Shown here: in pieces, positions 5,826-36,427 of the stretch | Numbering within the stretch: the stretch's first letter is position 1 | Layout of the letters: each line of letters begins with the position of its first letter | Origin: Candidatus Gastranaerophilales bacterium | Lineage (GTDB): Bacteria; Cyanobacteriota; Vampirovibrionia; Gastranaerophilales; Gastranaerophilaceae | Direction of reading: 5' to 3' | NCBI GenBank assembly: GCA_947589525.1 | Contig: CANQAW010000001.1 | Coordinates: 1-47,142 of the forward strand | Length of the DNA: 47,142 bases | Translations under genes and position numbers: made by a program | Notes under the pieces: model-generated | Databases searched by the model: none | Seen by the model: the letters and a program-made list of their open reading frames with translations, nothing else | What the model was told of the DNA's origin: nothing

Positions 5826-6832
5826 CTATTTGCCTCCTTTATAGTTTTATCGAGACATTTTTCCCATTCATAAGCTGTTTTAATACTGTCCCTTAAAGTT
5901 TTTTCAGGAGTCCATTTTAAAATTTCTTTTGCTTTTGAATTATCAGCAACAAGTTGAGTAGGATCCCCTTCACGTCTATTTATATTATTTACGGATATTT
6001 TTTGTCCCGTTATTTCTTTACATAATTCAAAAACTTCTTTTACCGTGCATCCTTCTTTTGTTCCTAAATTGAAAAAGTCCGTATTACCACCTTTTAAAAG
6101 ATATTCAAGAGCTAAAATATGTGCTTGTACTAAATCTTCAACATTGACATAATCTCTTACGCAGGTACCATCTTTTGTATCGTAATCCGTTCCGTAAATT
6201 TTAAATGGTTCACCGCCTTGAAACGTTGACTTTAAAATTTTGGGAATTAAATGTGTTTCAGGATCGTGCCATTCACCGATTCTTGTTTTACTGTCAGCAC
6301 CTGCAACATTAAAATATCTAAGTCTGACAGATTTTACATTATATGCCCTGTCATAATCTTCCATTATGCCTTCTATTGCTAATTTTGTTTTACCGTAGGG
6401 ATTTATTGGTTTTTGAGGATGTGTTTCGTCTATTGGTACATATTTAGGTTCCCCATATGTTGCAGCTGTTGAAGAAAAGACAATTTTATTTACATTATTT
6501 CTTCTCATAATATCAAGCAAATTTAATGTTCCTATAACGTTATTTCTGTAATACCTGTCCGGATTTGCAACAGATTCCCCAACCTGAGACAGAGCTGCAA
6601 AATGAATAACAGCATCAATTTTTGAGCAAAAAGCATTGTTTATTTCATTAGGATTTAATAAATTTCCTTTTACAAAATGTAATTTATTTTGCCCTATAGA
6701 AGATAGTTTATTGATTGTTTCAATATGCCCTGTTGAAAGGTTATCAAAAACAACAACCTCATAACCTTTTTCAAGAAGTGCTAAAACGCAATGACTTCCT
6801 ATATATCCTGCACCGCCGGTTACTAAAATCAT
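5822..6832 (-). CDS. galE: UDP-glucose 4-epimerase
   Basis: MILVTGGAGYIGSH Rossmann motif, SSTAATYG, YGKTK (YxxxK), 336 aa. Confidence 0.85.
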   Translation of the reverse strand: MILVTGGAGYIGSHCVLALLEKGYEVVVFDNLSTGHIETINKLSSIGQNKLHFVKGNLLNPNEINNAFCSKIDAVIHFAALSQVGESVANPDRYYRNNVIGTLNLLDIMRRNNVNKIVFSSTAATYGEPKYVPIDETHPQKPINPYGKTKLAIEGIMEDYDRAYNVKSVRLRYFNVAGADSKTRIGEWHDPETHLIPKILKSTFQGGEPFKIYGTDYDTKDGTCVRDYVNVEDLVQAHILALEYLLKGGNTDFFNLGTKEGCTVKEVFELCKEITGQKISVNNINRREGDPTQLVADNSKAKEILKWTPEKTLRDSIKTAYEWEKCLDKTIKEANR

Positions 6833-7935
6833 TTACAAACCTCCTCAAAAAGTTCAATTGCTCTTAAAATTGCTTTATCCATGTCGTAATATTTGTAATC
6901 GCCCAATCTACCCAAGAAATAAACATTATCCAATTTCTTCGTTTCTTCCAAATATTTGTTATAAAGCACCGTATTTTCATCTTTTGGAATAGGATAATAT
7001 CTTTCGTTTTTGCCTAACTCAAAAAATTCGGAATACTCTTTTGCAATAACAGTTTTTTCTGACTTATCACCAAGATAGTATTTGTACTCATGAATTCTTG
7101 TGAAATCGTAATTGCAAGGGTAATTTACACATGCATTTGATTGATAATATTCTTTGTTATGAGTTTCAAATTTAAAATTCACGCTTCTATAAGGTAATTG
7201 TCCGAATTTGTAGTTAAAATACTCATCAATAGGTCCTGTATAGAAAATCCTGTCAAATTTACTTGCATCAACATCCTTAAACTCAGTATTTAAACGAACT
7301 TCAATATTTTTATGGTCAAGCATTTTTTCAACGACTTTTGTATAGCCCTCTAATGGAATACCTTGATATTTATCCTGAAAATATCTGTTATCTTTACTTA
7401 AATAAACCGGAACTCGAGCAGTTACAGCTCCATCTACATCTTTTGGTGGTACACCCCATTGTTTTGTTGTATAGTGCAAAAATATTTTTTCATATACATA
7501 ATTCGCAAGATATTTCAAATCGTCGTCATCTTGTTTTTGGAATTCTAAAATCGGAACTTTTGTGTTGTATGCAAAATTATCTAACAATTTTTCTTCAAGA
7601 TTTTTTGCCATAGTTTTTGGGAAAACTTGATAAAGCGTGTTAAAGTTGAATGGGATTTGAGCTTCAATTCCATCCAAATAACCTACAACTTTGTGCATAT
7701 AAGTATTAAAATCAGTAAATTGCTTTAAATATGCCCAAACTTTTTCTGATTTTGTATGGAAAATATGTGAACCATATTTGTGAATCATAATGCCGTTTTC
7801 ATCACGATAGTCAAAACAATTCCCTGCAATATGGTCTTTTTTGTCTATGATAACAACTTCTTCATCAAGTTGTGTAGCTATTAAATTTGCAATTGTAGCA
7901 CCACTAAATCCTGCACCAACCACTAAATTCTTCAT
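6829..7935 (-). CDS. glf: UDP-galactopyranose mutase
   Basis: N-terminal VVGAGFSGATIA FAD fold, 368 aa, overall Glf-like sequence (HKYGSHIFHT, YPIP..N, LGRLGDYKYYDMD). Confidence 0.8.
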   Translation of the reverse strand: MKNLVVGAGFSGATIANLIATQLDEEVVIIDKKDHIAGNCFDYRDENGIMIHKYGSHIFHTKSEKVWAYLKQFTDFNTYMHKVVGYLDGIEAQIPFNFNTLYQVFPKTMAKNLEEKLLDNFAYNTKVPILEFQKQDDDDLKYLANYVYEKIFLHYTTKQWGVPPKDVDGAVTARVPVYLSKDNRYFQDKYQGIPLEGYTKVVEKMLDHKNIEVRLNTEFKDVDASKFDRIFYTGPIDEYFNYKFGQLPYRSVNFKFETHNKEYYQSNACVNYPCNYDFTRIHEYKYYLGDKSEKTVIAKEYSEFFELGKNERYYPIPKDENTVLYNKYLEETKKLDNVYFLGRLGDYKYYDMDKAILRAIELFEEVCK

Positions 7936-8837
7936 ACTTGCACCTCTTGTATTGGAATCAACCCAAATAGTAAATGTTTTTCTGTATGTAAACTTTCTTT
8001 TATCCTGTATATAGATATTCCAAAAAATTTAAAATCTTTCTTTATAGCCCAAAAATTTTTATCTCTTACATTTACATTGTGTTCTTTCAAAAAACATAAA
8101 ACTTCTTTATTAGCATTATTTTTATCAGTTCTCATTTTTTTTAAATGTTGAACTCTACGATTATTTACTGTAGAATTTGGGTTACTAAAGTAGTAATAAT
8201 TAATATTAGGAACTGTTACAATGCCATTAGCGTAATAAATTGTTTTTAAAGTAAAAATTCTATCTTCACAATAAACATCCTCAGGCCATTTGATATCATG
8301 TTTCAGTAATAAATCTCTCTTATAGATTTTATTTGTAGGGCAAGGATTTTTCCATTGTACATTGATATCAAATTTATCTTGCACAGAAGTATATTCTTTT
8401 TCTTCAGTGATATTTAAACGTTTCTTATTGCAATTTTTCTTAACTCTAACATTTGTTCCAAGAGCAATATCAAAATTATGATTTTTTGCAGTATTATATA
8501 ATTTTTCATAAAAGTCTAAATCAACCCAATCATCTGAATCAACAAAACCAATATATTCACCTGTTGCAATTTTCATGCCTGCATTTCTCGCAGCACCCTG
8601 CTTTTTGTTTTCTTGTTCAATTATTTTTATTCTGGGATCTTTATTAGCAAATTTTCTTACAGTTATCATTGAGTTATCTGTTGAACCGTCATTAACGCAG
8701 ATAATTTCAATATCTTGCAGAGTTTGGTTAACTAAGCTACTCAAACATTTTCCAATATATTTTTCTGTGTTATAAATAGGAACAATAACTGAAACTTTTA
8801 CCACTACTACAAGCCTATCTTGGAGAACTTTCTCCAT
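7932..8837 (-). CDS. glycosyltransferase family 2
   Basis: VSVIVPIYN..NDGSTDNS..VDSDD. The N-terminus is uncertain: an in-frame GTG at 8804 would give M-VKVSVIVPIYN, like the sibling GT2s. Confidence 0.8.
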   Translation of the reverse strand: MEKVLQDRLVVVVKVSVIVPIYNTEKYIGKCLSSLVNQTLQDIEIICVNDGSTDNSMITVRKFANKDPRIKIIEQENKKQGAARNAGMKIATGEYIGFVDSDDWVDLDFYEKLYNTAKNHNFDIALGTNVRVKKNCNKKRLNITEEKEYTSVQDKFDINVQWKNPCPTNKIYKRDLLLKHDIKWPEDVYCEDRIFTLKTIYYANGIVTVPNINYYYFSNPNSTVNNRRVQHLKKMRTDKNNANKEVLCFLKEHNVNVRDKNFWAIKKDFKFFGISIYRIKESLHTEKHLLFGLIPIQEVQV

Positions 8838-9240: not shown

Positions 9241-9783
9241 TTATATCACAAAGTTTGTGTAGCTTTCATCTATTTCATCCTGTTCAATTCCAATGTATCT
9301 TAATGTGATTTCAGGAGATGAGTGATTGAATATTTTTTGCAACATTGCAACATCTTTGAATTTTTTGTAGTGATGATAGCCAAAAGTTTTTCTCATCGTA
9401 TGTGTCCCAAACTTATCTTCCAAACCTGCTTCTTCACATGCCGTTCGGATGATATAATATGCCGCAACTCGTGCAAGCCTATTTCCAAACTTTGTTTCAA
9501 ACAATGGCAAATCAAGCCTTTTACCTTTGGTGTATATTGCAAAGAGTTCTTTTAATTTTGAATTAATGGGGAATTTCTTAAATTTCCCTGTTTTCTTTTC
9601 GGTTAATTGAATAAAATTTCTGTTCTTAACATCTCCGACATTTAGCTTTAAAATGTCTGAAATTCTTAAACCACAGTTTGTTCCTATTGTGAAAAACACA
9701 AGATTTCTTAAACTTTGTCTTGCAAGAATATTTTCTACTTTACGAATATCCTCTACATTTCTAATTGGTTCTACAGTACCCAT
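9241..9783 (-). CDS. short (catalytic-domain-only) tyrosine recombinase
   Basis: 180 aa. GLRISDIL (Arg I), GTHTMRKTFGY (H-x-x-R), HSSPEITLRYIG (His plus the Tyr nucleophile). It has its own RBS (AAGGAGAC). Confidence 0.8.
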   Translation of the reverse strand: MGTVEPIRNVEDIRKVENILARQSLRNLVFFTIGTNCGLRISDILKLNVGDVKNRNFIQLTEKKTGKFKKFPINSKLKELFAIYTKGKRLDLPLFETKFGNRLARVAAYYIIRTACEEAGLEDKFGTHTMRKTFGYHHYKKFKDVAMLQKIFNHSSPEITLRYIGIEQDEIDESYTNFVI

Positions 9784-9852: not shown

Positions 9853-10302
9853 CTACTTTAAATAATGTTCGGTTGCGTCAAGAATTTCATTGAAATCATC
9901 ATCAGTAAGTTGAAGGTAAGGTCTTGCAGGGATTTTTACTTTTTTGCCTCTGCCGGCATCACCTCCGAGTTGATGTATCGCAGCATAATCAAGATTTGAC
10001 CCAATAATTGCCGATTCATCGTCATACTGTGTTGAAATTGATGAGGCAAGTTGACCTGATACTTGCAGTATTTGTCCCGGCCATTTTTTCTGTTTTGTTC
10101 TTTGTTTTTTCGTTGCTTCAGAAAGTTCTGTCCACTTACCAGGTCTACCTTCATTTTTAAAATTTTCTTCTGTTGCAGATGCGAAAATACCTGCGATGTT
10201 TTTCATTAACGGTCGCAGGTCTTCGCCTTTTTGAGCAAGTTCTAACAAGTTTCTCTCAACATCTTTATTATCGATTTTGATTTCAATCGGTTTGTCGCTC
10301 AT
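9853..10302 (-). CDS. Mu gpG-like virion morphogenesis protein
   Basis: 149 aa. ..FKNEGRPGKWTELSEATKK..ILQVSGQLASSI..IGSNLDYAAIHQLGG..IPARPYL fits the gpG family pattern. Confidence 0.75.
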   Translation of the reverse strand: MSDKPIEIKIDNKDVERNLLELAQKGEDLRPLMKNIAGIFASATEENFKNEGRPGKWTELSEATKKQRTKQKKWPGQILQVSGQLASSISTQYDDESAIIGSNLDYAAIHQLGGDAGRGKKVKIPARPYLQLTDDDFNEILDATEHYLK

Positions 10303-11101
10303 GTATTTCTCGTATCGGATAATTGGCGATTAAAAGTTCTTTGAACACTTTGTTTAATCGATTATCACCCTGTCTGTTGTTAATACCGTTTTGTCTTTCA
10401 ACTTCTATCATTTCAAAACCTTTATATAATTCTCGTACTTTTGGAGAATCGTCATAGGAAAGTAAAAATCTGCCCTTTATATTTCCAAGAATTTCTCTTA
10501 AACGTTCGTGGTCGAAATCTTCCGTAGATGTAACTTCGTATCCGCAACCTTTGGAGTATGGAGGATCGCAATAGAAAAATGCATTTTCAAAATCGTATTG
10601 TTTGATAAGTTTTTCAAAGTCACGATTTTCAATCATTACTTTATCAAGACGTTTGTGGATGGCATCAATTTTTTCAGGCACATTCTTTAAGGATTTACAA
10701 GCTCCGCCACTTGAACATTTAACTGTTCCGAATGTATTTCCTTTGCCACCGAAAGAGCGAGTTATCAGGTAATAAAACTGAACAGCTTTTTGAATATCCG
10801 TAATCGGAGTTGAGTTCATAAATTGGAAAAATATTTCACGAGAGCCGAGAAGATAGTTAAATTCTTCTTTAAAAGCATTCGGATGGTATTTAACAATTCT
10901 GAAAAGGTTTACAAGACGGCTGTCAAGGTCGTTATAGATTTCTAAATCAGCCCATTTATCTTTGTAAAACAAAATCCAACCGCCACCACCAAATGGCTCA
11001 ATATATGATTTTATATCTTTAGGAATAAGCGGTTCTATTGTTTTACGCAATAATCTTTTACCGCCAACCCAATTAATCAAAGATTTTTTATCAATAGTCA
11101 T
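10283..11101 (-). CDS. N6-adenine DNA methyltransferase (Dam-like, D12 class)
   Basis: N-terminal WVGGKRLL, EPFGGGG (SAM-binding motif) and the catalytic FFYCDPPY motif. Confidence 0.85.
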   Translation of the reverse strand: MTIDKKSLINWVGGKRLLRKTIEPLIPKDIKSYIEPFGGGGWILFYKDKWADLEIYNDLDSRLVNLFRIVKYHPNAFKEEFNYLLGSREIFFQFMNSTPITDIQKAVQFYYLITRSFGGKGNTFGTVKCSSGGACKSLKNVPEKIDAIHKRLDKVMIENRDFEKLIKQYDFENAFFYCDPPYSKGCGYEVTSTEDFDHERLREILGNIKGRFLLSYDDSPKVRELYKGFEMIEVERQNGINNRQGDNRLNKVFKELLIANYPIREIHERQTD

Positions 11102-11144
11102 TTAAAACTCCTTGTTGTTTTATATCTGTTCAAATAGTGTTTTA

Positions 11145-11903
11145 TTACTGTTCAATTAATCCACTTGCGGGATTATGAGACCAACCAACATCAGGGGAAA
11201 TTCTTTTGCCTGTTAATGGGTCGGTATAAACAGTTACAGGCTTGTATTCGCCTGATTTCTTTGAAACAAGTGCCATTTGTTGGGATAAAGTACCTTCTGA
11301 AGAAGACACGATGCTTTTATTTTTTTGTACTTTGTAATCAGAAAGAGCATTAACTCTACATCTGCATCGCCAACCGTTTGGAGGGTAAAAACTCTGCCAA
11401 AACGGGTCATCATATCGATAAATTAAACCGTTAAGCATTGCGTGTTCAGGTCTTGTTGCAGTATCCATAACGGCAACGTATTCCCAGTAAGGTCGATTTT
11501 CTGCATTATCCACTTGTGTCTTATATCTTCCCGTCTGATAAGCTACTTGCATATTTACGGAGTAAATCGTTTTTAATCGGTACATTGAACCAAGCTGAAC
11601 TTTTTCGGCATTACCTTTTGAATCAACGATAATTTGTTCGCCCCACCAACCTTTCTTTTGGAGTGTTGGTTTAAGTTCTTTTGAAAACTCTTTAAAAGTT
11701 TTGCCTTCTGAAAGTGCTTTATCTAAAGCTGAACGAATATCTTTTAAGATATCTTCTCGCATAACTTTAGCGACCGTAAACGATTTTTTGTGTGCATCTT
11801 GCCAAAGTTCGTACCAATCCCAACTATATTTATTGTTTTTGTTTTTGAAATATTTTATTGCAAGACTCGGAGCAAGTTTAAACAGACCTTTAAGTTGTAC
11901 CAT
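11145..11903 (-). CDS. MuF / SPP1 gp7-family head morphogenesis protein
   Basis: ..YWEYVAVMDTATRPEHAMLNG..DDPFWQSFYPPNGWRCRCRV, the characteristic MuF C-terminal motif. Short at 252 aa. Confidence 0.8.
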   Translation of the reverse strand: MVQLKGLFKLAPSLAIKYFKNKNNKYSWDWYELWQDAHKKSFTVAKVMREDILKDIRSALDKALSEGKTFKEFSKELKPTLQKKGWWGEQIIVDSKGNAEKVQLGSMYRLKTIYSVNMQVAYQTGRYKTQVDNAENRPYWEYVAVMDTATRPEHAMLNGLIYRYDDPFWQSFYPPNGWRCRCRVNALSDYKVQKNKSIVSSSEGTLSQQMALVSKKSGEYKPVTVYTDPLTGKRISPDVGWSHNPASGLIEQ

Positions 11904-13023
11904 TTATAACCTCTGCTAATTTTTTAGCAACAGTCTCAATTACATTTACTGTAACAGCGTTTCCTGCCATTTTGTATAGATGACAGTCAGCCATCCCAAG
12001 AGTTCTTGCAGTTTTTACCATTTCATCCGGGAAACCCTGAAGCCTGAAGCATTCAAGAGGAGTCAATCGCCTAATTCTATAATCGTCAATCGTTCCCATA
12101 TTGCAACTTGTATCAAGTGTTTGAGAACAACCTTTACCGACTCGTCCTCGTCTTGTTTTTGATTGAGGAAATGCTAAATTAATCCCATCTCCGGGACCGG
12201 CTTCGTCAAATCCCTTTTTAGTTCCATTTCTTACTTTCATTAAAGGTGTATCGCCGGCAACTTTTAGAGTTTGTACGGTATCGGAGGCTTTGTATTGATT
12301 ATGACGAGGTTTATTAATGAAATACAAACCTGTTTTACCTCCTTGACCGCCACCGCTTGATGTAATGCAAGTGCTTATTCCGTTAGGATAATAAACTCTG
12401 TTCCCCTGTGAATTTCCAAGAGTTGAAGGTAATTGTGTTATATTGATTTCGCAATTATTCTCTGAATTGCTTCCTGTGAGAGGAAATATTTTTCCGGCAC
12501 ATTCTGTTCCATAACATCCAACAATGTACACCCGTTCCCTGTTTTGAGGAACTCCGAAGAACTTAGAATTAAGTAACTGCCATTGAGTTTGATACCCAAT
12601 GTCGGAGAGAATTTTAAGTATTGTTTGGAAAGTTTTTCCTCCGTTGTGATTAAGTAAGCCTTTAACGTTTTCGAGAATAAAATATCTCGGTCTTTTGTCT
12701 TTGAGAATCCGTGCGACTTCAAAAAACATTGTGCCCCTTGTGTCTTCAAATCCGAGTCTTTTTCCTGCAATGCTAAAAGATTGACAAGGAAATCCCGCAC
12801 ACAAGATATCGAAATCGGGGAGTTCTTTTGTGTTGATTGTTGTGATGTCATTAAAAAATACCTCATGCGTTGTATCAAAGTAATTCCTGTATAATTTGTT
12901 GGCATATTCGTCATTATCGCAATAGCCAATACATTTAAAACCGGCTCGTTCCAAGCCAATTCTAAAACCACCTATCCCTGAAAAGAAATCGAAGTAAGTT
13001 AATTGTTTATTCATCCAATCCAT
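11890..13023 (-). CDS. DNA cytosine-5 methyltransferase
   Basis: FSGIGGF (motif I), GFPCQSFS (IV, catalytic Cys), ENVKGL (VI), QNRERVYIVG (VIII), GNAVTVNV (X). The start is taken at the ATG at 13023 (MDWMNKQ); an ATG at 13014 is also possible. It overlaps the portal stop. Confidence 0.9.
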   Translation of the reverse strand: MDWMNKQLTYFDFFSGIGGFRIGLERAGFKCIGYCDNDEYANKLYRNYFDTTHEVFFNDITTINTKELPDFDILCAGFPCQSFSIAGKRLGFEDTRGTMFFEVARILKDKRPRYFILENVKGLLNHNGGKTFQTILKILSDIGYQTQWQLLNSKFFGVPQNRERVYIVGCYGTECAGKIFPLTGSNSENNCEINITQLPSTLGNSQGNRVYYPNGISTCITSSGGGQGGKTGLYFINKPRHNQYKASDTVQTLKVAGDTPLMKVRNGTKKGFDEAGPGDGINLAFPQSKTRRGRVGKGCSQTLDTSCNMGTIDDYRIRRLTPLECFRLQGFPDEMVKTARTLGMADCHLYKMAGNAVTVNVIETVAKKLAEVINGTT

Positions 13024-14470
13024 CACTCCTTCCTTGCAGTTCGCAGAGGAACATAGCTTTTTGAAGAGTCTGTTCAAACTTTTTGCTTTTTAAGTTTTTG
13101 TCTGTAAGTAATTCGTATGCTTCTTCATAATCATCACAACTTTCAAGAAGTGAAATCAATGGAGATAGCATATTTTGAGCTTGTTTTGAAAGCTCTGTTT
13201 CAGATAAGAATTTAAACAAATCCTCAATTTGTTTTTGTCCTTGAACGATTGGAGTTTCTTCTTTAAACTCACTAAAGTTTGGTGTTGCAGTTGGTAAGAT
13301 GTCCTCTCGGATATCAAAATCCTCATCTTCAAGACCATAATTTTTAATAAAATATTCTTTGGTAAATTTTACTCCTGTGTCTGAAAGGATTTTATCTCTT
13401 TGAGCAAGAGTTAAATCAACATCTTCGGGAGCATACATTTCAAAGACGGGAATATCAGCTGTTGAGAAGTTAATTTCGTATATCCATCTTATTAATTGAT
13501 TGATTACACTTTCAACGAGTTTTTTATCTGCATCAATAATGTCTTGTCGTATCGCAAAATGTGTATTTGAGGCAGCATAACTTCCTGTTGAGCCTATTTC
13601 GGTAGTTAGAGTCTGACCGAGTATGGCTTTTGAAATTTCAGCATTCATTTTATCAATAAGTTGTTCATATATCGCAGCAGATGAGGATTTATTGGCTTCT
13701 TGGATTTCAACGGAGGAATCATCAGGAATAACGGCAATAGCATCTTGTACCATTTCTTCAAGCATATCGGCAAGAGTGTTTGTTTCTTCTTTTGTTGCTC
13801 CACGAGGATGTTTGCCTATAAGGTGCGGCATTCCGTATTTTTCCGTAAAAATAACCCAAAATTTTAGTCCGCCTTTTTTGAATGTAACAGGCCAGAAAAC
13901 TCGTGAAAGAGTTCGTTCTCCGTAAGGATTGTTGTATGACGGATTGTTTTGAGCCAACAAAAACTTTTTATTCGGCAATTCCTCTCCGTAATAATTCTCT
14001 TTAGTTCTAAATTTGAGAGTGTTGTTGTCATCAAAACAAAACCATTCGGGAGGTTTTGCAACTATTTTTTCAGGCAAAATATATCCAGATTTATCTCTTT
14101 TCCATATTATTTCTAAAGGTTGAAAACCAAACTGTGTTGCATCCAATATGTCTGAAATCAATTTGTGGATATCGAGTTGTTTTAGTAGATTTTCAATAGC
14201 TTCTGCTTTTTCGTCTTTATCCAGTCCTCTGTTTATTTCCCATTCAAGCGAGAGTACACCTGATTTACGGGATTGAACACACGCAAAAACATGAGGGTCG
14301 CAAAGCAATTCTTTATATACTCGGACATCTTTTCCTTGTTTGCGTAGGACAATATCGGGATCAGGAAGAATATTGGCAAGCGAATAGAAGTTTAATGCAC
14401 GTTTTCGGGTGGCAATTTCTTCTGTCAGACTTTTTTTAGAATTAACTTTTTTAAGGATTGAATCTTCCAC
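13007..14470 (-). CDS. portal protein (Mu gp29 / DUF935-like)
   Basis: 487 aa, placed ahead of the MuF gene (the C5-MTase lies between), overall DUF935-like sequence. The GTG start overlaps the tail-tube stop (TAGTG). Confidence 0.75.
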   Translation of the reverse strand: MEDSILKKVNSKKSLTEEIATRKRALNFYSLANILPDPDIVLRKQGKDVRVYKELLCDPHVFACVQSRKSGVLSLEWEINRGLDKDEKAEAIENLLKQLDIHKLISDILDATQFGFQPLEIIWKRDKSGYILPEKIVAKPPEWFCFDDNNTLKFRTKENYYGEELPNKKFLLAQNNPSYNNPYGERTLSRVFWPVTFKKGGLKFWVIFTEKYGMPHLIGKHPRGATKEETNTLADMLEEMVQDAIAVIPDDSSVEIQEANKSSSAAIYEQLIDKMNAEISKAILGQTLTTEIGSTGSYAASNTHFAIRQDIIDADKKLVESVINQLIRWIYEINFSTADIPVFEMYAPEDVDLTLAQRDKILSDTGVKFTKEYFIKNYGLEDEDFDIREDILPTATPNFSEFKEETPIVQGQKQIEDLFKFLSETELSKQAQNMLSPLISLLESCDDYEEAYELLTDKNLKSKKFEQTLQKAMFLCELQGRSDGLDE

Positions 14471-18859: not shown

Positions 18860-19834
18860 CTAGATATTTAGTCTTAGAAGTGCATCTCTGAATGAGATGT
18901 TTTCTTTTTCCGCAAGAGCGGTTGCCTCTTTAAAAATCTCTAAGGATTCTTCTTCGGCATTTGCAAACTTTTCAACATCCACTTTAGACAAGTGTTTGTC
19001 TTTTGTTGCAGTTTCTTTGTATGTAATTTGGGGTGGAATGGACTCGATAAAAGATTTAAAGTCAGAAATGACTTGCGAGTCCTCCCCAAATTTCTGTACA
19101 TTATCTAATTCTTGAAGAATTGATAGTACGACTTCTTTGTTTGCCGGAACCAATGTTCCTTTTTCGATTTGTTTTTCGATAAACTCATCAAACTCTTTTT
19201 TCTTAATAGCGAGTTTAATGTTGTTTAATTCTTGTTCGATTTCTTCTTTGCCTTGTGCTTTTTCTTTAAAACTTGCAACTTCATCAGTCAAAGCTGAAAT
19301 CTTTTCTTTCAAGGATTTAATTGTTTCAAGTTTTTTGTTGTTTTCTTTGAAATTAGCAACTTGAGTTTCAAGGACAGAAATCTGCTTTTTCAAATCCTCA
19401 ATATCTTCTTGCGAAAAGTTGTCGGAATCATCTTCGGATTCAAACTCATAGGTGTCAGATTCTGATTCCATAAATTTAATCGCTTCCAAACCTTTAACTT
19501 GAGGTATTGCTGCACCTAAAAATGAGACAGCCTTAAGGTAAGCACCTTTGCCTTCAAGATTTCGGTACAATTCAACGGAAACTTTTTTATACTTTCCGTC
19601 ATTTACATCTTTTTCAAATGTTTCGGGAATATCTTTAAAAGCAACTTTTAATTTATCTCCCTCTGCTTTTACTGTTTCAACCCAACCATAAGCGGGTCCT
19701 GACTGTTGATGGTCGATGGTAATCGGGGCTTCGCAGAATTTTGGGTCATAGTTTTTTGCAATTTCTGCAATTTCCTTTTGGGTAAATTTACCTTGAGGGT
19801 ATTTACCGGCTTTAAATACTTCGTAGAATTTCAT
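18860..19834 (-). CDS. Mu gpI-like prohead protease / scaffold
   Basis: The N-terminal ..APITIDHQQSGPAYGWV.. domain is followed by an acidic, coiled-coil C-terminal half (scaffold-like). First gene of the minus-strand late block. Confidence 0.65.
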   Translation of the reverse strand: MKFYEVFKAGKYPQGKFTQKEIAEIAKNYDPKFCEAPITIDHQQSGPAYGWVETVKAEGDKLKVAFKDIPETFEKDVNDGKYKKVSVELYRNLEGKGAYLKAVSFLGAAIPQVKGLEAIKFMESESDTYEFESEDDSDNFSQEDIEDLKKQISVLETQVANFKENNKKLETIKSLKEKISALTDEVASFKEKAQGKEEIEQELNNIKLAIKKKEFDEFIEKQIEKGTLVPANKEVVLSILQELDNVQKFGEDSQVISDFKSFIESIPPQITYKETATKDKHLSKVDVEKFANAEEESLEIFKEATALAEKENISFRDALLRLNI

Positions 19835-20605: not shown

Positions 20606-21047
20606 TAAGCAATATCTTATAGGTGAGGCAGAAAACCTCTTTGTTTACAAATTAAAAACAGTTGAAACAATTGCCAATGAACTGAATCTTAGCAGAAAAA
20701 CAGTTATGAATTGGAAAGAAAAAGGCGATTGGGATAATAAACGCAAGTTGTATATTAAATCTAAAATTGCCTTCCATGAAGAATTATTTGAATTTGCTCG
20801 CAAAATCATGAAAGACATAACGGAGGATATGGAAAAAGGCAACAAAATTGATGCCGGCAGAATGTATGCATTTTGTAAGCTTGTACCAATGTTCACAAAA
20901 GTAAAAGACTATGAAGATATAGTGGCTAAAAAAGAAGAAAAAGCGACTCCAAGAGGGTTGACACCTGAACTTATTGCACAAATTGAAGAAGAGGTGTTGG
21001 GAATCACTCACAATGACAATAACAACGAAGAAATCGAAAAAAACTAA
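20598..21047 (+). CDS. Mu gp27-like (DUF1804-type) small terminase subunit
   Basis: HTH ..VETIANELNLSRKTVMNWKEKGDWDNKR.. immediately upstream of the large terminase. Confidence 0.65.
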   Translation: MTNKQYLIGEAENLFVYKLKTVETIANELNLSRKTVMNWKEKGDWDNKRKLYIKSKIAFHEELFEFARKIMKDITEDMEKGNKIDAGRMYAFCKLVPMFTKVKDYEDIVAKKEEKATPRGLTPELIAQIEEEVLGITHNDNNNEEIEKN

Positions 21048-22377
21048 TTTTTTTCTGCCATATCAAATGCGGTGGTTAGATGATAATTCAAAAGTAAAAA
21101 TATGGGAGAAATCCCGAAGAATAGGAGCAACATATGTACAAAGTTATGAAGATGTAAAAGATTGCGTAAAACGGACAGTTCCGGCTGTGTGGTTTTCTTC
21201 TGCGGATGAATCGGCAGCACGAGAGTACATTGATTATTGCAAACAATGGGCAACTTTGTTTAATATCGCTGCCAAAGACTTAGGCGAGCAGATTTTGGAT
21301 AAAGAAAAAGACATCAAAGCCTATGTCATTCAGTTCTCAAACGGAACAAAAATACACGCATTGTCATCAAATCCTAAAGGGTTTCGTTCCAAAGGCGGAA
21401 AAGTTGTACTCGATGAATTTGCATTCCACAATAATCCCGAAGAATTATGGAAAGCTGCACGACCTTGTATTACTTGGGGATATCCTCTAAGGATTCTTTC
21501 AACCCACAACGGTCAAAGCTGTCTTTATTACAAATTCTTGGATCAGGTTCAAAAAGGTAAACTCAAATGGAGTCATCACAAAACCCCGATACAACTTGCC
21601 GTTGACGAAGGCTTGATTGATAAAATCTACGGCAGACCTACAACGCAAGAAGAACGACAGGCTTGGTTAGATGAAGAATGCAAGAACTGTTTTGACGATT
21701 ATACTTGGTTTCAAGAGTATTGTTGTATCGCTATTGACGAGGCTTGTGCTTTTCTTCCGTATGAACTTATTGCAACTTGTGAGATGCAGGATGTTTTAAA
21801 ATCACTTGAAACAATAAGAGGAGATTTATATGTTGGAATAGACATCGGCAGAAGAAAAGACTTAACAGTTATATGGTGTCTTGAAAGACTTGAAAACTCC
21901 AAATATACAAGAAAAGTTAAAGTTTTAGAAAAAACACCTTTTCATATCCAATATGAGATAGTATCAGAGATTTTAAAACACCCGAAACTGCGAAGATGTT
22001 GTATTGACTCTACCGGCATAGGAATGCAACTTGCTGAAACTGCACAAAAAGACTTCGGACAATACAGAGTCGAGGCGGTAATGTTTACTAATCGTTCCAA
22101 AGAGGAAATGGCATACAACCTCCGTACAAACTTTGAAGATAAATCCGTATTCATACCAAATGAACACGATATCCGAGAAGATTTACACTCAATAAGAAGA
22201 ATTGCAACAAAAGCAGGAAATATTCGTTTTGATGCTGACTCCTCCGAAGTAAACGGACACGCAGACAGATTTTGGGCGTTGGCACTTGCTCTGATTGCTT
22301 GTTCTGTTCCGTACTCGCCTGTAGATATTACAACAAGAAAAAGATATGAGACTTTAAAAATGACTCAAAATTTTTAA
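21013..22377 (+). CDS. terminase large subunit (Mu gp28-like)
   Basis: First ATG (MTITTKK..); the track start at 20974 is a TTG. KSRRIGAT (Walker A variant), VVLDEFAF (Walker B), and a nuclease half with GIDIGRRKD and CIDSTGIG. Confidence 0.85.
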   Translation: MTITTKKSKKTNFFLPYQMRWLDDNSKVKIWEKSRRIGATYVQSYEDVKDCVKRTVPAVWFSSADESAAREYIDYCKQWATLFNIAAKDLGEQILDKEKDIKAYVIQFSNGTKIHALSSNPKGFRSKGGKVVLDEFAFHNNPEELWKAARPCITWGYPLRILSTHNGQSCLYYKFLDQVQKGKLKWSHHKTPIQLAVDEGLIDKIYGRPTTQEERQAWLDEECKNCFDDYTWFQEYCCIAIDEACAFLPYELIATCEMQDVLKSLETIRGDLYVGIDIGRRKDLTVIWCLERLENSKYTRKVKVLEKTPFHIQYEIVSEILKHPKLRRCCIDSTGIGMQLAETAQKDFGQYRVEAVMFTNRSKEEMAYNLRTNFEDKSVFIPNEHDIREDLHSIRRIATKAGNIRFDADSSEVNGHADRFWALALALIACSVPYSPVDITTRKRYETLKMTQNF

Positions 22378-32352: not shown

Positions 32353-32862
32353 ATGACATCACTAACTAAAATCTGTCTGCATTGGACAGCAGGAACAAAT
32401 AGTCCAAATTCAACTGATTTAGAACATTATCACTTTTTATTTGATAAAGACGGCAAAGAATACAAAGGCACTTATACCCCACAAGATAATATTAACTGTT
32501 ATGACGGAAAATACGCAGCACATTGCGGTGGTGGGAACACAGGATGCATCGGAGTTTCTTGTTGTGGGATGTATGGTTTTAATTTAAAAGATAAAAAAAC
32601 AAAATATCCTCTCACTCAAAAACAAGTGGAGGCAATGTGTTCCAAAGTTGCAAAGCTATGCAGTTTATATGGAATCACAGTTTCAGAAAAAACTGTTTTT
32701 ACACATTATGAATTCGGTCAATCTCATCCTAAAACTTCAAGTTATGGAAAAATTGATTTCACATATCTTCCGTATTTGCCAAATCTATCAAAAGAGAGAA
32801 TTGGCGATTATTTAAGGAACAAGATTCAATGGTATCAAATTCAACAAAAGAAAGGAAAATAA
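32353..32862 (+). CDS. N-acetylmuramoyl-L-alanine amidase-type endolysin
   Basis: The start is moved to the ATG at 32353. ..ICLHWTAG..HYHFLFDKDG..AAHCGGGNTGCIGVSCCGM.. fits the amidase_2/PGRP pattern. Confidence 0.65.
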   Translation: MTSLTKICLHWTAGTNSPNSTDLEHYHFLFDKDGKEYKGTYTPQDNINCYDGKYAAHCGGGNTGCIGVSCCGMYGFNLKDKKTKYPLTQKQVEAMCSKVAKLCSLYGITVSEKTVFTHYEFGQSHPKTSSYGKIDFTYLPYLPNLSKERIGDYLRNKIQWYQIQQKKGK

Positions 32863-33163: not shown

Positions 33164-33784
33164 ATGTATTGGAAAGATATGCTGAATGTGCAAAATGTTG
33201 AAAAAGGTTTTTTCTCCTCCTCTAATCCCTATGGTATCCCTGATTTAAAACCGGATGAGTTTCCCATAAAGGAACTCATCCCCTACAGGGTTGATAAAAA
33301 CAGGAACGGAACGGCACACTTCTTTTTAGATGATTATCGTTTTGAGAGATGTTGGAAAAACGCAGACTCACAGCTTGCAGTTTTAAAACAATACGATGGA
33401 GTGTTATCTCCTGATTTTTCGATGTACACGAATTACCCCGAAGCTTTCCAAATTTGGCAAGTTTATAGGAACAGATGGTGTGCAAGATATTGGCAAGAAA
33501 ACGGAATAAAAGTTATTCCGACAGTCAGTTGGTCCGATGAATCAAGCTACAAATATGCCTTTTTAGGAATTCCAAAACATTCTGTTGTTGCAATTGGAAC
33601 AGTTGGTGTTTTGAATGATAAAAACGCTATAACTCTCTTTATACAAGGCTTTAAAGAAATGTTAAAACAACTTGAACCAAAAGAAATTTTGATTTATGGA
33701 AACAAACTGAGCGAACTTGACGGATATAAAAACCTCCGTTGGTTCGAACCGTACATGAATAAATTTAAGAAAGCGAGGTCATAA
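33164..33784 (+). CDS. DUF4417-like protein
   Basis: ..AHFFLDDYRFERCW..LSPDFSMYTNYP...QIWQVYRNRWCARYWQENGIKVIPTVSW.. matches my memory of the DUF4417 family. Function unknown. Confidence 0.55.
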   Translation: MYWKDMLNVQNVEKGFFSSSNPYGIPDLKPDEFPIKELIPYRVDKNRNGTAHFFLDDYRFERCWKNADSQLAVLKQYDGVLSPDFSMYTNYPEAFQIWQVYRNRWCARYWQENGIKVIPTVSWSDESSYKYAFLGIPKHSVVAIGTVGVLNDKNAITLFIQGFKEMLKQLEPKEILIYGNKLSELDGYKNLRWFEPYMNKFKKARS

Positions 33785-34251
33785 TGGGTGGTCGAGGTTC
33801 AGGTGGTGGCAAAGGTTCAAAAACTTCTTCAAGTAGTGCTCCAATTTCAAAAGGCGAAAAAATCTACCGAGAAAAGGTTTTAAAAAATTCTTACATAGGA
33901 ATGAATGAGTTTAAAGAAGTTAAAGAATACTTAAAAAATAATGCCTCAAAAGAAGAAATTTTAAAAGTTGCAAATCATTATGGAGAACTTTATAAAAATA
34001 AATTTGATATTTCAGGCGATACTGCTGCAATGTATAAAACCTATGAGAATTCTTTAAACACGTTGGCAGTACAAAAAGGAGGTTTTAAAAAAGCTGAAAA
34101 AATAAAATATATTAACGAAAAAGGTGGTTCTAATATTGACGTATCTGACAGTTATTCAAGTAAAGAAATTGATAAAATGTTCAAGCAAGTTGTTAAAGGT
34201 AAAAAGATGAAGAAAATTGGCTACGAATGGGTAGTTGATTATAACAGTTAA
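33784..34251 (+). CDS. hypothetical protein, MGGRGSGGG-headed, copy 1
   Basis: 155 aa. N-terminal MGGRGSGGGKGSKTSSSS, then a Lys-rich helical-looking body. Coupled to the DUF4417 gene by ATAATG. Confidence 0.6.
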   Translation: MGGRGSGGGKGSKTSSSSAPISKGEKIYREKVLKNSYIGMNEFKEVKEYLKNNASKEEILKVANHYGELYKNKFDISGDTAAMYKTYENSLNTLAVQKGGFKKAEKIKYINEKGGSNIDVSDSYSSKEIDKMFKQVVKGKKMKKIGYEWVVDYNS

Positions 34252-34266
34252 GAAAGTGAGGTAATC

Positions 34267-34914
34267 ATGGGTGGTCGTGGTTCAGGTGGTGGTAGAAGCG
34301 GAAAAGCATCTGCCGGTGGTGGAACAATGAAAAAAGATGAATTGATAAATTTATACAATAACATTTCAGGAAATCCGTCATACACGGTTGAAGAGAGAGT
34401 TCGTGCAATGTCATCAATAAAAAAAGAAATTGATAATATTGATGCCAAAGAAAAACCAAAAGAAAAAACAACTCAAGAAAAGAGACTGGAAGCTCTTGCT
34501 AAAGCTCGTGCAAAACGTGCAGAAAACAAAAAGAATGGAATAAAACCCGAAAAGAAAGAAAAAGACCCAAGAAGAACAAAAGCTAAAATGTCTATGGATA
34601 GCACAGTTTCAGACCTTAAATATAATTTGAGGCGAGGAGTTGAATCAGACGGATATATTTCAAATTCTGATTTCAGAGTTGAAGATTACGGAAATTCCGT
34701 CAGCGTTCAAATCAGATATTTAGGGAAGTGGAAAAATCCATCACATGCACGCTATGAGGAAGATTACGATTGGCAGGAACTTCGTTCTTCAAGTGGCAAA
34801 CAGATTGATAAAGTAATAAAGAAAATGTCAAAACAATCAGGCAGAAAAATCACTTGGAGTACAAGCGAAAAGAATTGGATTGATATTGATATTCCAAAAA
34901 TGAAAGGAGACTAA
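34267..34914 (+). CDS. hypothetical protein, MGGRGSGGG-headed, copy 2
   Basis: 215 aa. N-terminal MGGRGSGGGRSGKASAGGG, a highly basic middle (KEKPKEKTTQEKR..KRAENKK) and a distinct C-terminal domain. Confidence 0.6.
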   Translation: MGGRGSGGGRSGKASAGGGTMKKDELINLYNNISGNPSYTVEERVRAMSSIKKEIDNIDAKEKPKEKTTQEKRLEALAKARAKRAENKKNGIKPEKKEKDPRRTKAKMSMDSTVSDLKYNLRRGVESDGYISNSDFRVEDYGNSVSVQIRYLGKWKNPSHARYEEDYDWQELRSSSGKQIDKVIKKMSKQSGRKITWSTSEKNWIDIDIPKMKGD

Positions 34915-34917
34915 TTT

Positions 34918-35514
34918 ATGGGAGGTCGTGGTTCAGGTGGCGGTAAAAGTAGTGGTGGAGGTGGTGCATCTTCTACACCACCAAGATTAGTGAGTGTAAA
35001 TGATTATTATAAAGAAAAATACTCACAAATGAACGATTTGGAATTAAATCGTGCATACGTTAATGCACAAAATTTGATGAAAAAGGAACAAGCAAAAGTT
35101 TTATACGAACAGGAAAAACTTTCAAAAATGATGGAAGAATTTAAAGCATTACCTGCAAATCATCCTGAAGTAAATAAAAAATGGGATGCGATTGATAAAC
35201 AAATGTCAGTATTAAATGATGCTCGTTCAAAATCAAATATTCGTTCACAGGCATATCTATTGGCAGTCAATGAAAAATACAATATCAGAGCAAAATACAA
35301 CTCAAACGATATGAAAAGTATGACTAACGGACAGTTAAACTCTTTTTACAATAAATCATATAAAGAGAGCAGTAAGGCTCGGCAAAAAATCGAAAAAACC
35401 TCCAATCCTAAAACAAAAGCAAAATATCAGAAAATATATGATCAGCATAATAAAAACTTCTTTGCCGCAAACAATGAACGCAACAATCGTGGACTTGATG
35501 GAAAAGATTGGTAA
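34918..35514 (+). CDS. hypothetical protein, MGGRGSGGG-headed, copy 3
   Basis: 198 aa. N-terminal MGGRGSGGGKSSGGGGASS, with a body unrelated by eye to copies 1 and 2. Confidence 0.6.
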   Translation: MGGRGSGGGKSSGGGGASSTPPRLVSVNDYYKEKYSQMNDLELNRAYVNAQNLMKKEQAKVLYEQEKLSKMMEEFKALPANHPEVNKKWDAIDKQMSVLNDARSKSNIRSQAYLLAVNEKYNIRAKYNSNDMKSMTNGQLNSFYNKSYKESSKARQKIEKTSNPKTKAKYQKIYDQHNKNFFAANNERNNRGLDGKDW

Positions 35515-35608: not shown

Positions 35609-36427
35609 ATGACAACAATTACACCCGAAGAAGCATTAAAAAGTAAGAAAAACTTTGAAGAGTTTATGACTGATTATTATCCGCCAATTGTAACTTCAAC
35701 ATTAGCAAGTTATCCAAAAGCTGATGGACAAACCGTTGTATCCATTTGTGATTTAACACAGAAAATGGAAACAATGGTTTCGCTCTTGAATGAAATTGAG
35801 AGTTTAAATCTAAATAAAGCTCCGTTTATCGTTTGGTATGTAACTTCAGAGAAAGAAGAATTGGTAACGGCAGCAAAAGCATTAAATCATTTTTCGATTA
35901 AAGGCATTAAAATATTTATTTTTAAAGCCTTTTTGAATGGCGATAAAATGGGCTTTGAATGCCTTTTGAAACCCGAATTAAATGATAAAAAAACTTATAC
36001 AAGAAATGAAAATACCCCTGCGAAAATATTTCAAAAAGAATATTGGGAAAAATATTTCGAGATTTGTGATGAATTACAAAGCGAAATGCAAGTTAATCCA
36101 AAGCCACAACATTTTCAATATTTGCCTATGGGTAAGCGTGGGGTTCAAATAATGCAAACCGTAAATACCAAATTAGGATATGTCGCAACAGAAATTTTTA
36201 TCAATAACGATCAGACAATTTTTGAGAAATTATTGGAACATAAAGTTGAAATTGAAGAGGAACTTGGATTTTTAGAATGGCAACCGATAGAAGATAAGAA
36301 ATCCTCACGCATAAGAAAAACACTCGGAGTAGATATTTTAAAAGAAGGAAATATTGAAAGAGCTGTTAAACTCCAAATCCAAACGGCAGAAGATTTTAAG
36401 AAAGTATTTTCAAAGTATTTAGTATAG
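35609..36427 (+). CDS. hypothetical protein with a DUF4268-like C-terminal half
   Basis: 272 aa. The C-terminal ..YWEKYFEICDEL..QYLPMGKRGV..ATEIFINNDQTIFEKLLEHKVEIEEELGF.LEWQP...KKSSRI resembles DUF4268 from memory. The N-terminal half is not recognised. Confidence 0.4.
   Translation: MTTITPEEALKSKKNFEEFMTDYYPPIVTSTLASYPKADGQTVVSICDLTQKMETMVSLLNEIESLNLNKAPFIVWYVTSEKEELVTAAKALNHFSIKGIKIFIFKAFLNGDKMGFECLLKPELNDKKTYTRNENTPAKIFQKEYWEKYFEICDELQSEMQVNPKPQHFQYLPMGKRGVQIMQTVNTKLGYVATEIFINNDQTIFEKLLEHKVEIEEELGFLEWQPIEDKKSSRIRKTLGVDILKEGNIERAVKLQIQTAEDFKKVFSKYLV

Follow-up and report, generated by a model that had tools for sequence, protein, structure and literature searches.

The window analysed here, the whole 47,142-nucleotide (nt) stretch of contig CANQAW010000001.1, contains a myovirus-like prophage of gut Gastranaerophilales (Melainabacteria). 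Near the 3′ end of its plus-strand genes, a gene for a DUF4417 protein is followed by three genes, called B1, B2 and B3 and starting at 33784, 34267 and 34918, whose products share an identical MGGRGSGGG start (the tag) and a subsequent Gly/Ser-rich stretch. Our main finding is that DUF4417 is a near-obligate partner of this tag across three bacterial phyla. The genes and repeats at the locus are as follows.

33164-33784, plus strand: DUF4417 gene, 206 amino acids (aa); Pfam PF14386, phrog_940
33784-34251, plus strand: B1 gene, 155 aa, isoelectric point (pI) 9.5; tag, Ser-rich linker, N-module and C-module 'KIKYIN...GYEWVVDY'
33784-33810, plus strand: tag copy 1, MGGRGSGGG (DNA pattern and repeat search)
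34248-34266, plus strand: 19-nt duplicate of the DUF4417 3′ end (TTAAGAAAGYGAGGT.AT.), now the B2 ribosome-binding-site region (repeat search)
34267-34914, plus strand: B2 gene, 215 aa, pI 9.8, phrog_38558; tag, variable Gly/Ala/Lys linker, helical hairpin, Lys-rich helix and C-terminal alpha/beta domain
34267-34293, plus strand: tag copy 2, MGGRGSGGG (DNA pattern and repeat search)
34918-35514, plus strand: B3 gene, 198 aa, pI 9.75; tag, Gly linker and a body predicted to be helical
34918-34944, plus strand: tag copy 3, MGGRGSGGG (DNA pattern and repeat search)

The DUF4417 stop codon overlaps the first tagged ATG (TAATG), B1 and B2 are separated by 15 nt and B2 and B3 by 3 nt, and each tagged gene is preceded by a Shine-Dalgarno sequence. 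A degenerate DNA pattern of the nonapeptide has exactly three matches in the 47 kb, at the three start codons, where none is expected (100 shuffles), and a repeat search recovers a 32-nt block three times at 88–91% identity. A longer repeat links copies 1 and 2 (33765-33858 versus 34248-34341) and begins 19 nt 5′ of the ATG. Because the B2 start overlaps the DUF4417 stop directly in loci that lack B1, this repeat points to the duplicate at 34248-34266, and with it the identity that copies 1 and 2 share farther upstream, as the local footprint of a B1 cassette inserted between DUF4417 and B2. Beyond the N-terminus the three proteins do not resemble each other: BLASTP among them detects no body similarity, and hhalign of the three family alignments aligns residues 1-15/18 alone, so that body homology is rejected. 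An apparent relationship between B1 and B2, produced by a single-linkage cluster merge, was traced to a chimeric protein. Each body family is conserved along its full length, with the first eight residues invariant and followed by a Gly/Ser/Ala/Lys linker of variable length, and the tag is kept in 118/120, 29/30 and 116/120 of the listed homologues of the three bodies. The sequence-only reading of this stretch had described three consecutive open reading frames (ORFs) with the common nonapeptide, upstream conservation of copies 1 and 2, and bodies that could not be aligned, and all three descriptions hold. It had also named observations that would speak against its view; full-length homology among B1–B3 and a match of their bodies to a known family were both absent, and the homologues have largely retained the tag.

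Relatives of the window DUF4417 occur in 68 genome loci, mostly in metagenome-assembled genomes of gut Gastranaerophilales/Melainabacteria; in annotated phage genomes we found no close relative of the window DNA and none of B2. Across 16 related viral contigs the order amidase, 96-aa ORF (p96), DUF4417, one to three tagged genes and DUF4268 is constant, with DUF4417 immediately 5′ of the tagged genes in 16/16 loci. A scan for the window-type tag gave 16 low-GC and six high-GC genuine loci, all 22 next to DUF4417. The six high-GC loci are actinophage members with DUF4417 upstream; the other high-GC matches were short or internal and were discarded as chance.

For the forward test of this association, 71 viral loci were chosen by a distant DUF4417 alone (38–49% identity), and DUF4417 was located in 69 of them. 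Reading 547 kb in six frames for ORFs of at least 50 aa that begin ATG-GG[RK][GS][GSAT], we found a strict tagged ORF in 50/69 loci. All 77 strict matches lie downstream on the DUF4417 strand, mostly at −10 to +4 nt from DUF4417, with none upstream and none antisense. The tag has a GTG or TTG start or stands behind a short leader in 11 further loci, giving a total of at least 61 of the 71. The reverse test scanned viral contigs for M-G-G-R(AGA)-G-x-x-S(AGY)-G, a pattern that covers part of the tag codon space. Among 128 matches heading real ORFs, 113 are preceded within 2.5 kb by a same-strand DUF4417, three have it just downstream, nine have too little flank and three have no DUF4417, so that DUF4417 adjoins the tag in 116 of 119 assessable loci.

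Phages with a GGRG[S/G/A] start directly 3′ of DUF4417 infect Actinobacteria, Clostridia and Melainabacteria. In Dorea phage DO134P1 the DUF4417 protein is 39% identical and the following gene starts MGGRGSASGK and continues into yet another body; the same order is found in the human-gut phages MT835767 and MT835513 and in Mycobacterium phage CELFI (gp110/gp111). Gene 1 of Mycobacterium phage Journey13 is DUF4417, and gene 2, annotated 'VIP2-like ADP-ribosyltransferase toxin', has a TTG start and reads GGRGGRGGPGPG. In a Ructibacterium prophage (locus L117, 3967-6439) two DUF4417 paralogues bracket two tagged genes, with a portal-sized (578-aa) ORF and a 400-aa ORF, both assigned by eye only, just downstream. 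A 75-aa Gly/Arg/Lys-rich ORF (MAEKGRRGGKYS...) precedes the portal-sized ORF of L117, and L198 has a similar 78-aa ORF (MGKGYRGGKYGS...); these two may form a second tag class. We define the module as DUF4417 followed by at least one same-strand ORF with the mature N-terminus GG[R/K]G[S/G/A], and the window has it with three such ORFs. DUF4417 had been noted as a coupled neighbour of the tagged genes; the coupling stands, given the TAATG overlap, while the neighbour has turned out to be a partner.

The tag is conserved as a peptide. Over 180 distinct 5′ regions each tag codon uses three to six synonymous codons (Gly GGC/GGT/GGA; Arg CGT/AGA/CGA/CGC, i.e., CGN versus AGR; Ser TCA/AGT/AGC, i.e., TCN versus AGY), and the upstream consensus is a Shine-Dalgarno sequence only. 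Because synonymous sites vary freely, selection acts on the peptide, which is kept in genomes of 33% to 64% GC. In alignments of representatives of 39, then 50, unrelated bodies, M1, G2, G3 and R4 are the only invariant columns, and G5 is present in at least 90%. The unbiased mature motif from distant phages is G-G-R-G-[S/G/A]-[S/G/A]-S-G-[I/L/V/M]-[G/S], and that of the window lineage is GGRGSGG[G/S][K/R].

In 254 of 274 cases the start codon immediately precedes GG; the others have a cleavable-type leader that ends right at GG. Ten leader variants, found in Clostridia-type phages, place NLQ[FY][FH] or AQIF/TQIF directly before GGRG (e.g., MNLQFF-GGRG, MRMNLQYH-GGRG, MVMNLQYF-GGRG and MRYRAQIF-GGRG). 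The Firmicutes protease Prp recognizes MLxx(D/N)LQ(F/L)F'A in ribosomal protein L27, and the 80alpha capsid and scaffold carry NLQFF'A and NLQHF'A (PMC9405229). Since the leader motif is the Prp motif, removal of Met in most cargo and leader cleavage in the rest would yield the same free GGRG N-terminus. B1–B3 have no Prp-type leader and start directly with M-GGRG.

The window DUF4417 protein matches PF14386 over residues 18-184 with 199.2 bits (cut-off 28.9; E=5.5e-59). All 24 invariant columns of a nine-member, cross-phylum DUF4417 alignment are present in it, and the residues invariant in these diverse homologues include H52, D57, D84, S86, Q96, Y101, R102 and T120. Its match to phrog_940 ('nuclease'; E=1.7e-80) is confined to profile positions 151-364 of 388, and the missing N-terminal ~150 positions are probably the ParB-like part that gave the profile its name. 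A ParB-CTPase is a known N-terminal fusion partner of DUF4417 (bioRxiv 10.1101/2025.10.10.680097). No nuclease family in Pfam or NCBIfam matched the DUF4417 gene, sequence and profile searches of the PDB returned no match, and a single-sequence structure model was unusable (predicted local distance difference test, pLDDT, 36). Among the full-text literature matches listed for DUF4417, the family appears as an annotation or as the ParB fusion partner only, and a full-text search for the 'MGGRG' tag returned no relevant paper.

In a library of 1.84 billion representatives, DUF4417 forms 3,114 clusters at 50% identity. The best 150 DUF4417 representatives comprise 123 stand-alone, 18 N-terminally extended and nine C-terminally extended proteins, and eight of these nine have a tag-like junction. 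In protein P0271, DUF4417 ends in ...KAKGEKT and is joined through MGGRGSGGGKTGGG to a B2 body; other junctions read ...KG-MGSAGN..., ...KG-GGSAYGG... and ...AP-GGGSGSSR.... These natural fusions are Rosetta-stone evidence for joint action of DUF4417, tag and body, arranged in this order. DUF4417 is present in 510 of 50,697 phage records versus five of 72,556 plasmid records. One of these five, the 44-kb Enterocloster bolteae 'plasmid' NZ_CP022465, appears to be a phage-plasmid; it carries DUF4417, then an ORF with an internal GGRGASSG, and also an annotated ADP-ribosyltransferase (ART) and a tyrosine recombinase. In that ORF (L325, 4616-5398) GGRGASSGLG lies at residue ~75 behind a long leader (...FYMRLD-GGRG), and an HNHPSGG motif like that of RadC/JAB domains was recognized by eye, with a weak Pfam match.

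A census of tagged proteins yielded 447 ORFs, 317 of them unique, in 51 clusters including one spurious antisense ORF. The tag is carried by about 50 unrelated bodies with a median length of 134 aa and a median pI of 10.0; the pI exceeds 9 in 39 of 50 clusters. The sequence-only reading had proposed such a search together with a tally of DUF4417 co-occurrence, and its view that the conserved unit is the N-terminal tag and not the protein is supported. Pfam assigns a domain to about six clusters, in each case with a score beyond the gathering cut-off; the domains include ADPrib_exo_Tox (L141 and two proteins in L166), ART-PolyVal (L199), the Gln_amidase papain-fold toxin (a glutamine deamidase; L189) and DUF6883 (BECR-Tox3 RNase; L135). 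DUF6883 has been reclassified as a BECR-Tox3 RNase toxin with frequent C-terminal fusion to Phage_Mu_F, and these toxin families are otherwise found fused to MuF or in polyvalent injected proteins (PMC5512222, PMC9503650, PMC7302621, bioRxiv 10.64898/2026.08.28.747851). The tagged ART-type toxin genes (L141 4796-6623, L166 4616-6457, L324 1187-2421) are paired with ~200-nt gaps or followed by a small ORF (Journey13 gp3), and these gaps or small ORFs could hold immunity genes as in MuF toxin loci. An impression that the 178-aa body of L117 and CELFI gp111 are also ARTs was not confirmed by Pfam and is not claimed. The MuF-type protein of the window has no match among the 317 tagged proteins by phmmer, and phrog_16619 ('minor head protein') is matched by one of 39 tagged representatives.

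The bodies of B1–B3 have no significant match in Pfam, PHROGs, NCBIfam, PADLOC or PDB sequences from which a function could be read. The AlphaFold2 model of B2 (pLDDT 70.6) has disordered residues 1-19, comprising tag and linker, then helices and a C-terminal alpha/beta domain; Foldseek with this model gave weak, generic alpha/beta or designed-protein matches, none convincing, and a PDB search with B3 found no relative. A precomputed Pfam match, PF28074.1, is attached to the B3 homologues P0163, P0167 and P0184; a full-text literature search for PF28074 found no paper. In the window lineage the first slot after DUF4417 is usually occupied by B2, and the second slot alternates (B2 then B3 in 32 loci, B2 then an unrelated 184-aa body in 19), with B1-type genes as occasional extra cassettes. 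B1 is a mosaic whose first ~100 aa match stand-alone 101-aa proteins and whose last ~55 aa recur on 123-aa proteins with a different middle. A tagged chimera at L089 2948-3337 joins B2-family N-terminal helices to the B1-family 'GYEWVVDY' C-module, and P0150 has a B1-type C-module on an untagged membrane protein, which together indicate shuffling of sub-modules.

In most distant phages the module heads the packaging operon: of the 71 distant loci, 57 have a same-strand terS, terL or portal gene, located a median of 888 nt past DUF4417, a gap with room for the cargo gene(s) only, although an HNH gene intervenes at times. The window prophage has a different arrangement, with the following genes around the module.

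9241-9783, minus strand: integrase
11145-11903, minus strand: MuF-type 'minor head protein and DNA pilot'
13007-14470, minus strand: portal
between portal and head protease, minus strand: head closure, tail sheath, adaptor and major head protein genes, in this order
18860-19834, minus strand: head maturation protease
just before TerL, plus strand: terS-like gene
20974-22377, plus strand: TerL
after TerL and before the endolysin, plus strand: tape measure, baseplate and tail fibre genes
32353-32862, plus strand: Amidase_2 endolysin (Pfam)
between endolysin and DUF4417, plus strand: 96-aa ORF (p96)
35609-36427, plus strand: DUF4268 gene, match to the PADLOC candidate PDC-S11 (E=1.8e-24)

On the plus strand the tail fibre genes are followed, in this order, by Amidase_2 endolysin, 96-aa ORF, DUF4417, B1–B3 and DUF4268. 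The module lies in the late operon, and terminator prediction gave no site between the tail genes and B3. The placement after a lysis gene at the distal end of the late operon, as first described, is correct. The accompanying suggestion that this is a position for accessory or defence cargo fits the window lineage and fails for most phages, where the packaging genes follow. In the window lineage the DUF4417-tag pair follows the lysis genes, and in CELFI it is surrounded by tRNA genes; it can thus move as a unit. The DUF4268 protein is syntenic yet divergent (41-98% identity) across sister prophages and, in view of this and the PDC-S11 match, may be prophage-borne defence cargo; PADLOC gave no significant match for DUF4417 or B1–B3, the DUF4268 gene alone being matched.

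Several other features of the element stand apart from the module. The layout of 9241-37722 is unusual in that minus-strand head, connector and sheath genes diverge at ~20 kb from a plus arm composed of terS, TerL, tape measure, baseplate, fibres and lysis genes, with the tape measure gene directly after TerL. On the minus strand at 10283-13077, two DNA methyltransferase genes flank the MuF-type gene between portal and integrase, an unusual location for methylases that resembles that of polyvalent or head-delivered methylases. Left of the integrase, eight co-directional minus-strand ORFs of ~300-370 aa and 24-31% GC (1733-8837) are presumably host genes.

We propose that the four genes form one module of DUF4417 and three cargo genes. 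Each cargo protein would consist of an N-terminal peptide (GGRGSGG[G/S][K/R] after loss of Met), a disordered Gly-rich linker and a small, basic, exchangeable body. DUF4417, presumably made from the same late mRNA and translationally coupled to the first cargo gene, would recognize GGRG at the free N-terminus and thereby give all cargo a common fate, acting as a carrier, an adaptor or a processing enzyme. That fate would most likely be entry into the assembling head and injection with the DNA, after which the cargo may act on the next host through take-over, anti-defence or toxin functions; bodies and sub-modules would be exchanged by recombination. We give this explanation, in which GGRG marks interchangeable effectors for recognition by DUF4417 and loading into the head, about an even chance. 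Several pieces of evidence favor head loading and injection: (i) the cargo shares its pool of domains with MuF-fused and polyvalent injected effectors; (ii) the bodies are small and basic, like T4 internal proteins; (iii) packaging genes are usually co-located; (iv) in some phages the cargo carries a host-protease leader of the type found on head proteins; and (v) the partner DUF4417 is essentially restricted to phages. The window phage has its own portal, MuF-type 'DNA pilot' protein and head protease. The sequence-only reading had taken the tag for a common handling signal on interchangeable bodies and had listed virion packaging or co-injection among its possible roles; the comparative evidence supports the former, and the cargo domains, the proximity of packaging genes and the Prp-type leaders make the latter the favored role.

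Other observations weigh against this explanation. We found no virion proteomics for any tagged protein or for DUF4417. Late or structural co-expression does not hold throughout, as the CELFI pair sits among tRNA genes in a non-structural arm and the module of the window lineage is found beyond the lysis genes. Unrelated genes, for instance those of HNH nucleases or methylases, typically adjoin the terminase as well. The enzyme-like set of invariant residues in DUF4417 suits a catalyst better than a passive adaptor. Because B1–B3 lack a recognizable domain, the effector nature of the window bodies is extrapolated from other phages, and their function is assigned provisionally through membership in the module. 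Cargo bodies also adjoin DUF4417 without a tag in L051 4094-4477 (Streptococcus phage phiNJ2), L156, L174 and L183; they comprise the commonest cargo body, with the His-rich motif YG[ST][EQ]Y...GNIKF...PHTHHGY, and one other. The tag can therefore be lost while the gene pair persists.

The main alternative, which is compatible with virion loading yet mechanistically new, is that DUF4417 is an enzyme acting chemically on the free N-terminal Gly of the cargo (a ligase or transpeptidase that links the cargo to a carrier, an acyl or other transferase, or a maturation protease that cleaves ahead of GG in forms with a fusion or leader), with the tag as its substrate. The invariant His, Asp, Asp, Ser, Gln, Tyr, Arg and Thr across phyla would suit catalysis, the tag invariably forms the very N-terminus after Met removal or by way of a Prp-type leader, tag positions 5-6 are limited to small residues with a flexible Gly-rich linker behind them, and the DUF4417-tag-body fusions have the topology of a ligation product. 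Against it, no search assigned DUF4417 to a fold or family, and it has no invariant Cys of the kind used by sortase-type transpeptidases; a role as protease alone would leave stand-alone M-GGRG cargo independent of it, with decay of the tag as the expected result. We regard the enzyme as possible but rather unlikely. The same tentative standing applies to its specific form, a new family of N-terminal-Gly enzymes that covalently attaches GGRG effectors to a carrier (DUF4417 itself, a MuF- or portal-type head protein, or DNA). If this were true, the carrier-toxin fusions that other phages encode genetically would be remade after translation, and any protein could be loaded into virions by way of the tag, a natural 'sortagging'-like handle. 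Somewhat less likely still is an intracellular conflict system, in which tagged toxins or effectors would act inside the infected or lysogenic cell (take-over, superinfection exclusion or abortive infection) and DUF4417, as a common chaperone, neutralizer or activator, would hold them by their tag. Such a system would suit the bodies with ART, deamidase and RNase toxin domains, the non-structural location in CELFI, the candidate defence neighbor in the window and a translational coupling as tight as that of toxin-antitoxin pairs. Against it stand the usual place right before terS, terL or portal, the virion delivery of the same toxin families as MuF fusions, the combination of one to three unrelated cargos with each DUF4417, the head-protein-type leaders and the negative PADLOC search for DUF4417 and B1–B3.

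Three further explanations are less likely again. The tag might be a leftover, i.e., the start of a linker inherited from split DUF4417-body fusions, or a generic RGG-like nucleic-acid-binding or disordered tail, and the existence of DUF4417-linker-body fusions, the variable Gly/Ser linker past residue 9 and the basic bodies all suit this idea. However, G2, G3 and R4 are invariant and G5 nearly so over ~50 bodies and three phyla while the linker varies, the start is placed precisely before GG or restored by a leader, and a relic linker would not stay under such purifying selection at freely varying codons; we consider this explanation improbable. Nucleic-acid binding of the RGG type, which the sequence-only reading had offered, does not account for a motif that is always extreme N-terminal or exposed by a cleavable leader. 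If the three genes were ordinary tandem paralogues in which only the N-terminus is still recognizable, the tandem layout, the similar size and composition and the 46-nt near-repeat that opens copies 1 and 2 at their 5′ ends would be explained, but BLASTP and hhalign found no body homology, each body family is itself well conserved, and the same tag occurs on ~50 unrelated bodies including known enzyme folds, so that this explanation is very improbable. Least credible is a block that acts at the DNA or RNA level as a recombination handle, pac-like site or translational element. The 32-nt block in the window is G-rich and Shine-Dalgarno-like, and cassette insertion and module shuffling are evident; even so, the synonymous codon changes, including CGN/AGR and TCN/AGY switches, the generic upstream consensus and the retention of the tag over a wide range of GC content speak against it. 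The codon analysis rules out a recombination handle, as first suggested, or a pac site as the cause of conservation.

The module is of the kind of N-terminally addressed, polymorphic phage effectors, to which the tag and its dedicated partner are new. The internal proteins of T4 are diverse, fast-evolving, small and basic, are loaded into the head and injected, and have a short N-terminal capsid targeting sequence (CTS) in common (PMC3012670, PMC5512222). As with GGRG, this peptide is the sole common part of IPI-III and Alt, the set includes an ADP-ribosyltransferase, and the genes are clustered and exchangeable. The T4 CTS consensus is MKTYQEFIAE-like. It has no sequence similarity to the GGRG tag; it binds to the scaffolding core, and the prohead protease gp21 cuts it off, whereas GGRG forms the mature N-terminus and has DUF4417, which looks non-structural, as its dedicated partner. 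Searches of B1–B3 against PHROG and Pfam gave no internal-protein match.

MuF polymorphic toxins share the effector pool (Alt/VIP2-type ARTs, the BECR RNase DUF6883 and deamidase-type toxins), the terminase/portal/MuF neighborhood and the combination of a constant N-terminal 'trafficking' part with a variable C-terminus (PMC5576092, PMC9503650, PMC7302621, bioRxiv 10.64898/2026.08.28.747851). The constant part is a ~250-aa MuF domain there and a 5-10 residue peptide with a separate DUF4417 protein here. B1–B3 have no MuF (Phage_Mu_F) domain by Pfam and PHROGs, and a variable C-terminal toxin domain is found in tagged proteins of other phages and not recognized in B1–B3. Polyvalent proteins (Iyer et al. 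2017) are similar in including ART-PolyVal and in delivering several early-acting effectors together, RadC/JAB-like motifs are a further resemblance recognized by eye with a weak Pfam match, and ParB is both a common polyvalent domain and the known N-terminal partner of DUF4417. They differ in that they combine two or more effector domains in one large polypeptide, whereas the putative effectors of the window are separate small genes (155-215 aa), each with its own tag, although single-ORF DUF4417-tag-body forms occur elsewhere, and in that polyvalent proteins also belong to conjugative elements, whereas DUF4417 is nearly absent from plasmids; the full text of Iyer et al. 2017 does not mention DUF4417.

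Type VI secretion systems use adaptor-dependent 'cargo' effectors and fused 'specialised' effectors. Their conserved adaptor gene directly 5′ of hypervariable effectors, and the occurrence of effectors in fused or separate form, recall the present module; the proteins and machinery are unrelated, and the analogy is one of logic only. With Prp substrates (L27 and the 80alpha capsid and scaffold) the leader variants share NLQ[FY][FH] just before the mature N-terminus (PMC9405229), but the P1′ residue is the Gly of the tag instead of Ala and the window genes are leaderless.

Taken as a search rule, an ORF that follows DUF4417 and has a mature GGRG N-terminus allows dozens of unrelated phage effector families, the majority uncharacterised, to be mined from phages of Mycobacterium, gut Clostridia and Melainabacteria. 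Among them are the VIP2-like toxins of actinophage cluster A, which the literature describes as unclear in their role. Should the tag prove to be a loading signal, it would provide a portable handle of 5-10 residues for the virions of Gram-positive and actinobacterial phages, much as the T4 CTS has been used, and phage engineering could profit from it; should DUF4417 prove to be an enzyme for N-terminal glycine, its biochemistry would be new. Culturable phages allow a direct test of how small stand-alone effectors without MuF enter heads. For the DUF4417 family, now annotated as 'unknown' or, misleadingly, as 'nuclease', the linkage to GGRG-tagged cargo provides a first concrete functional context.

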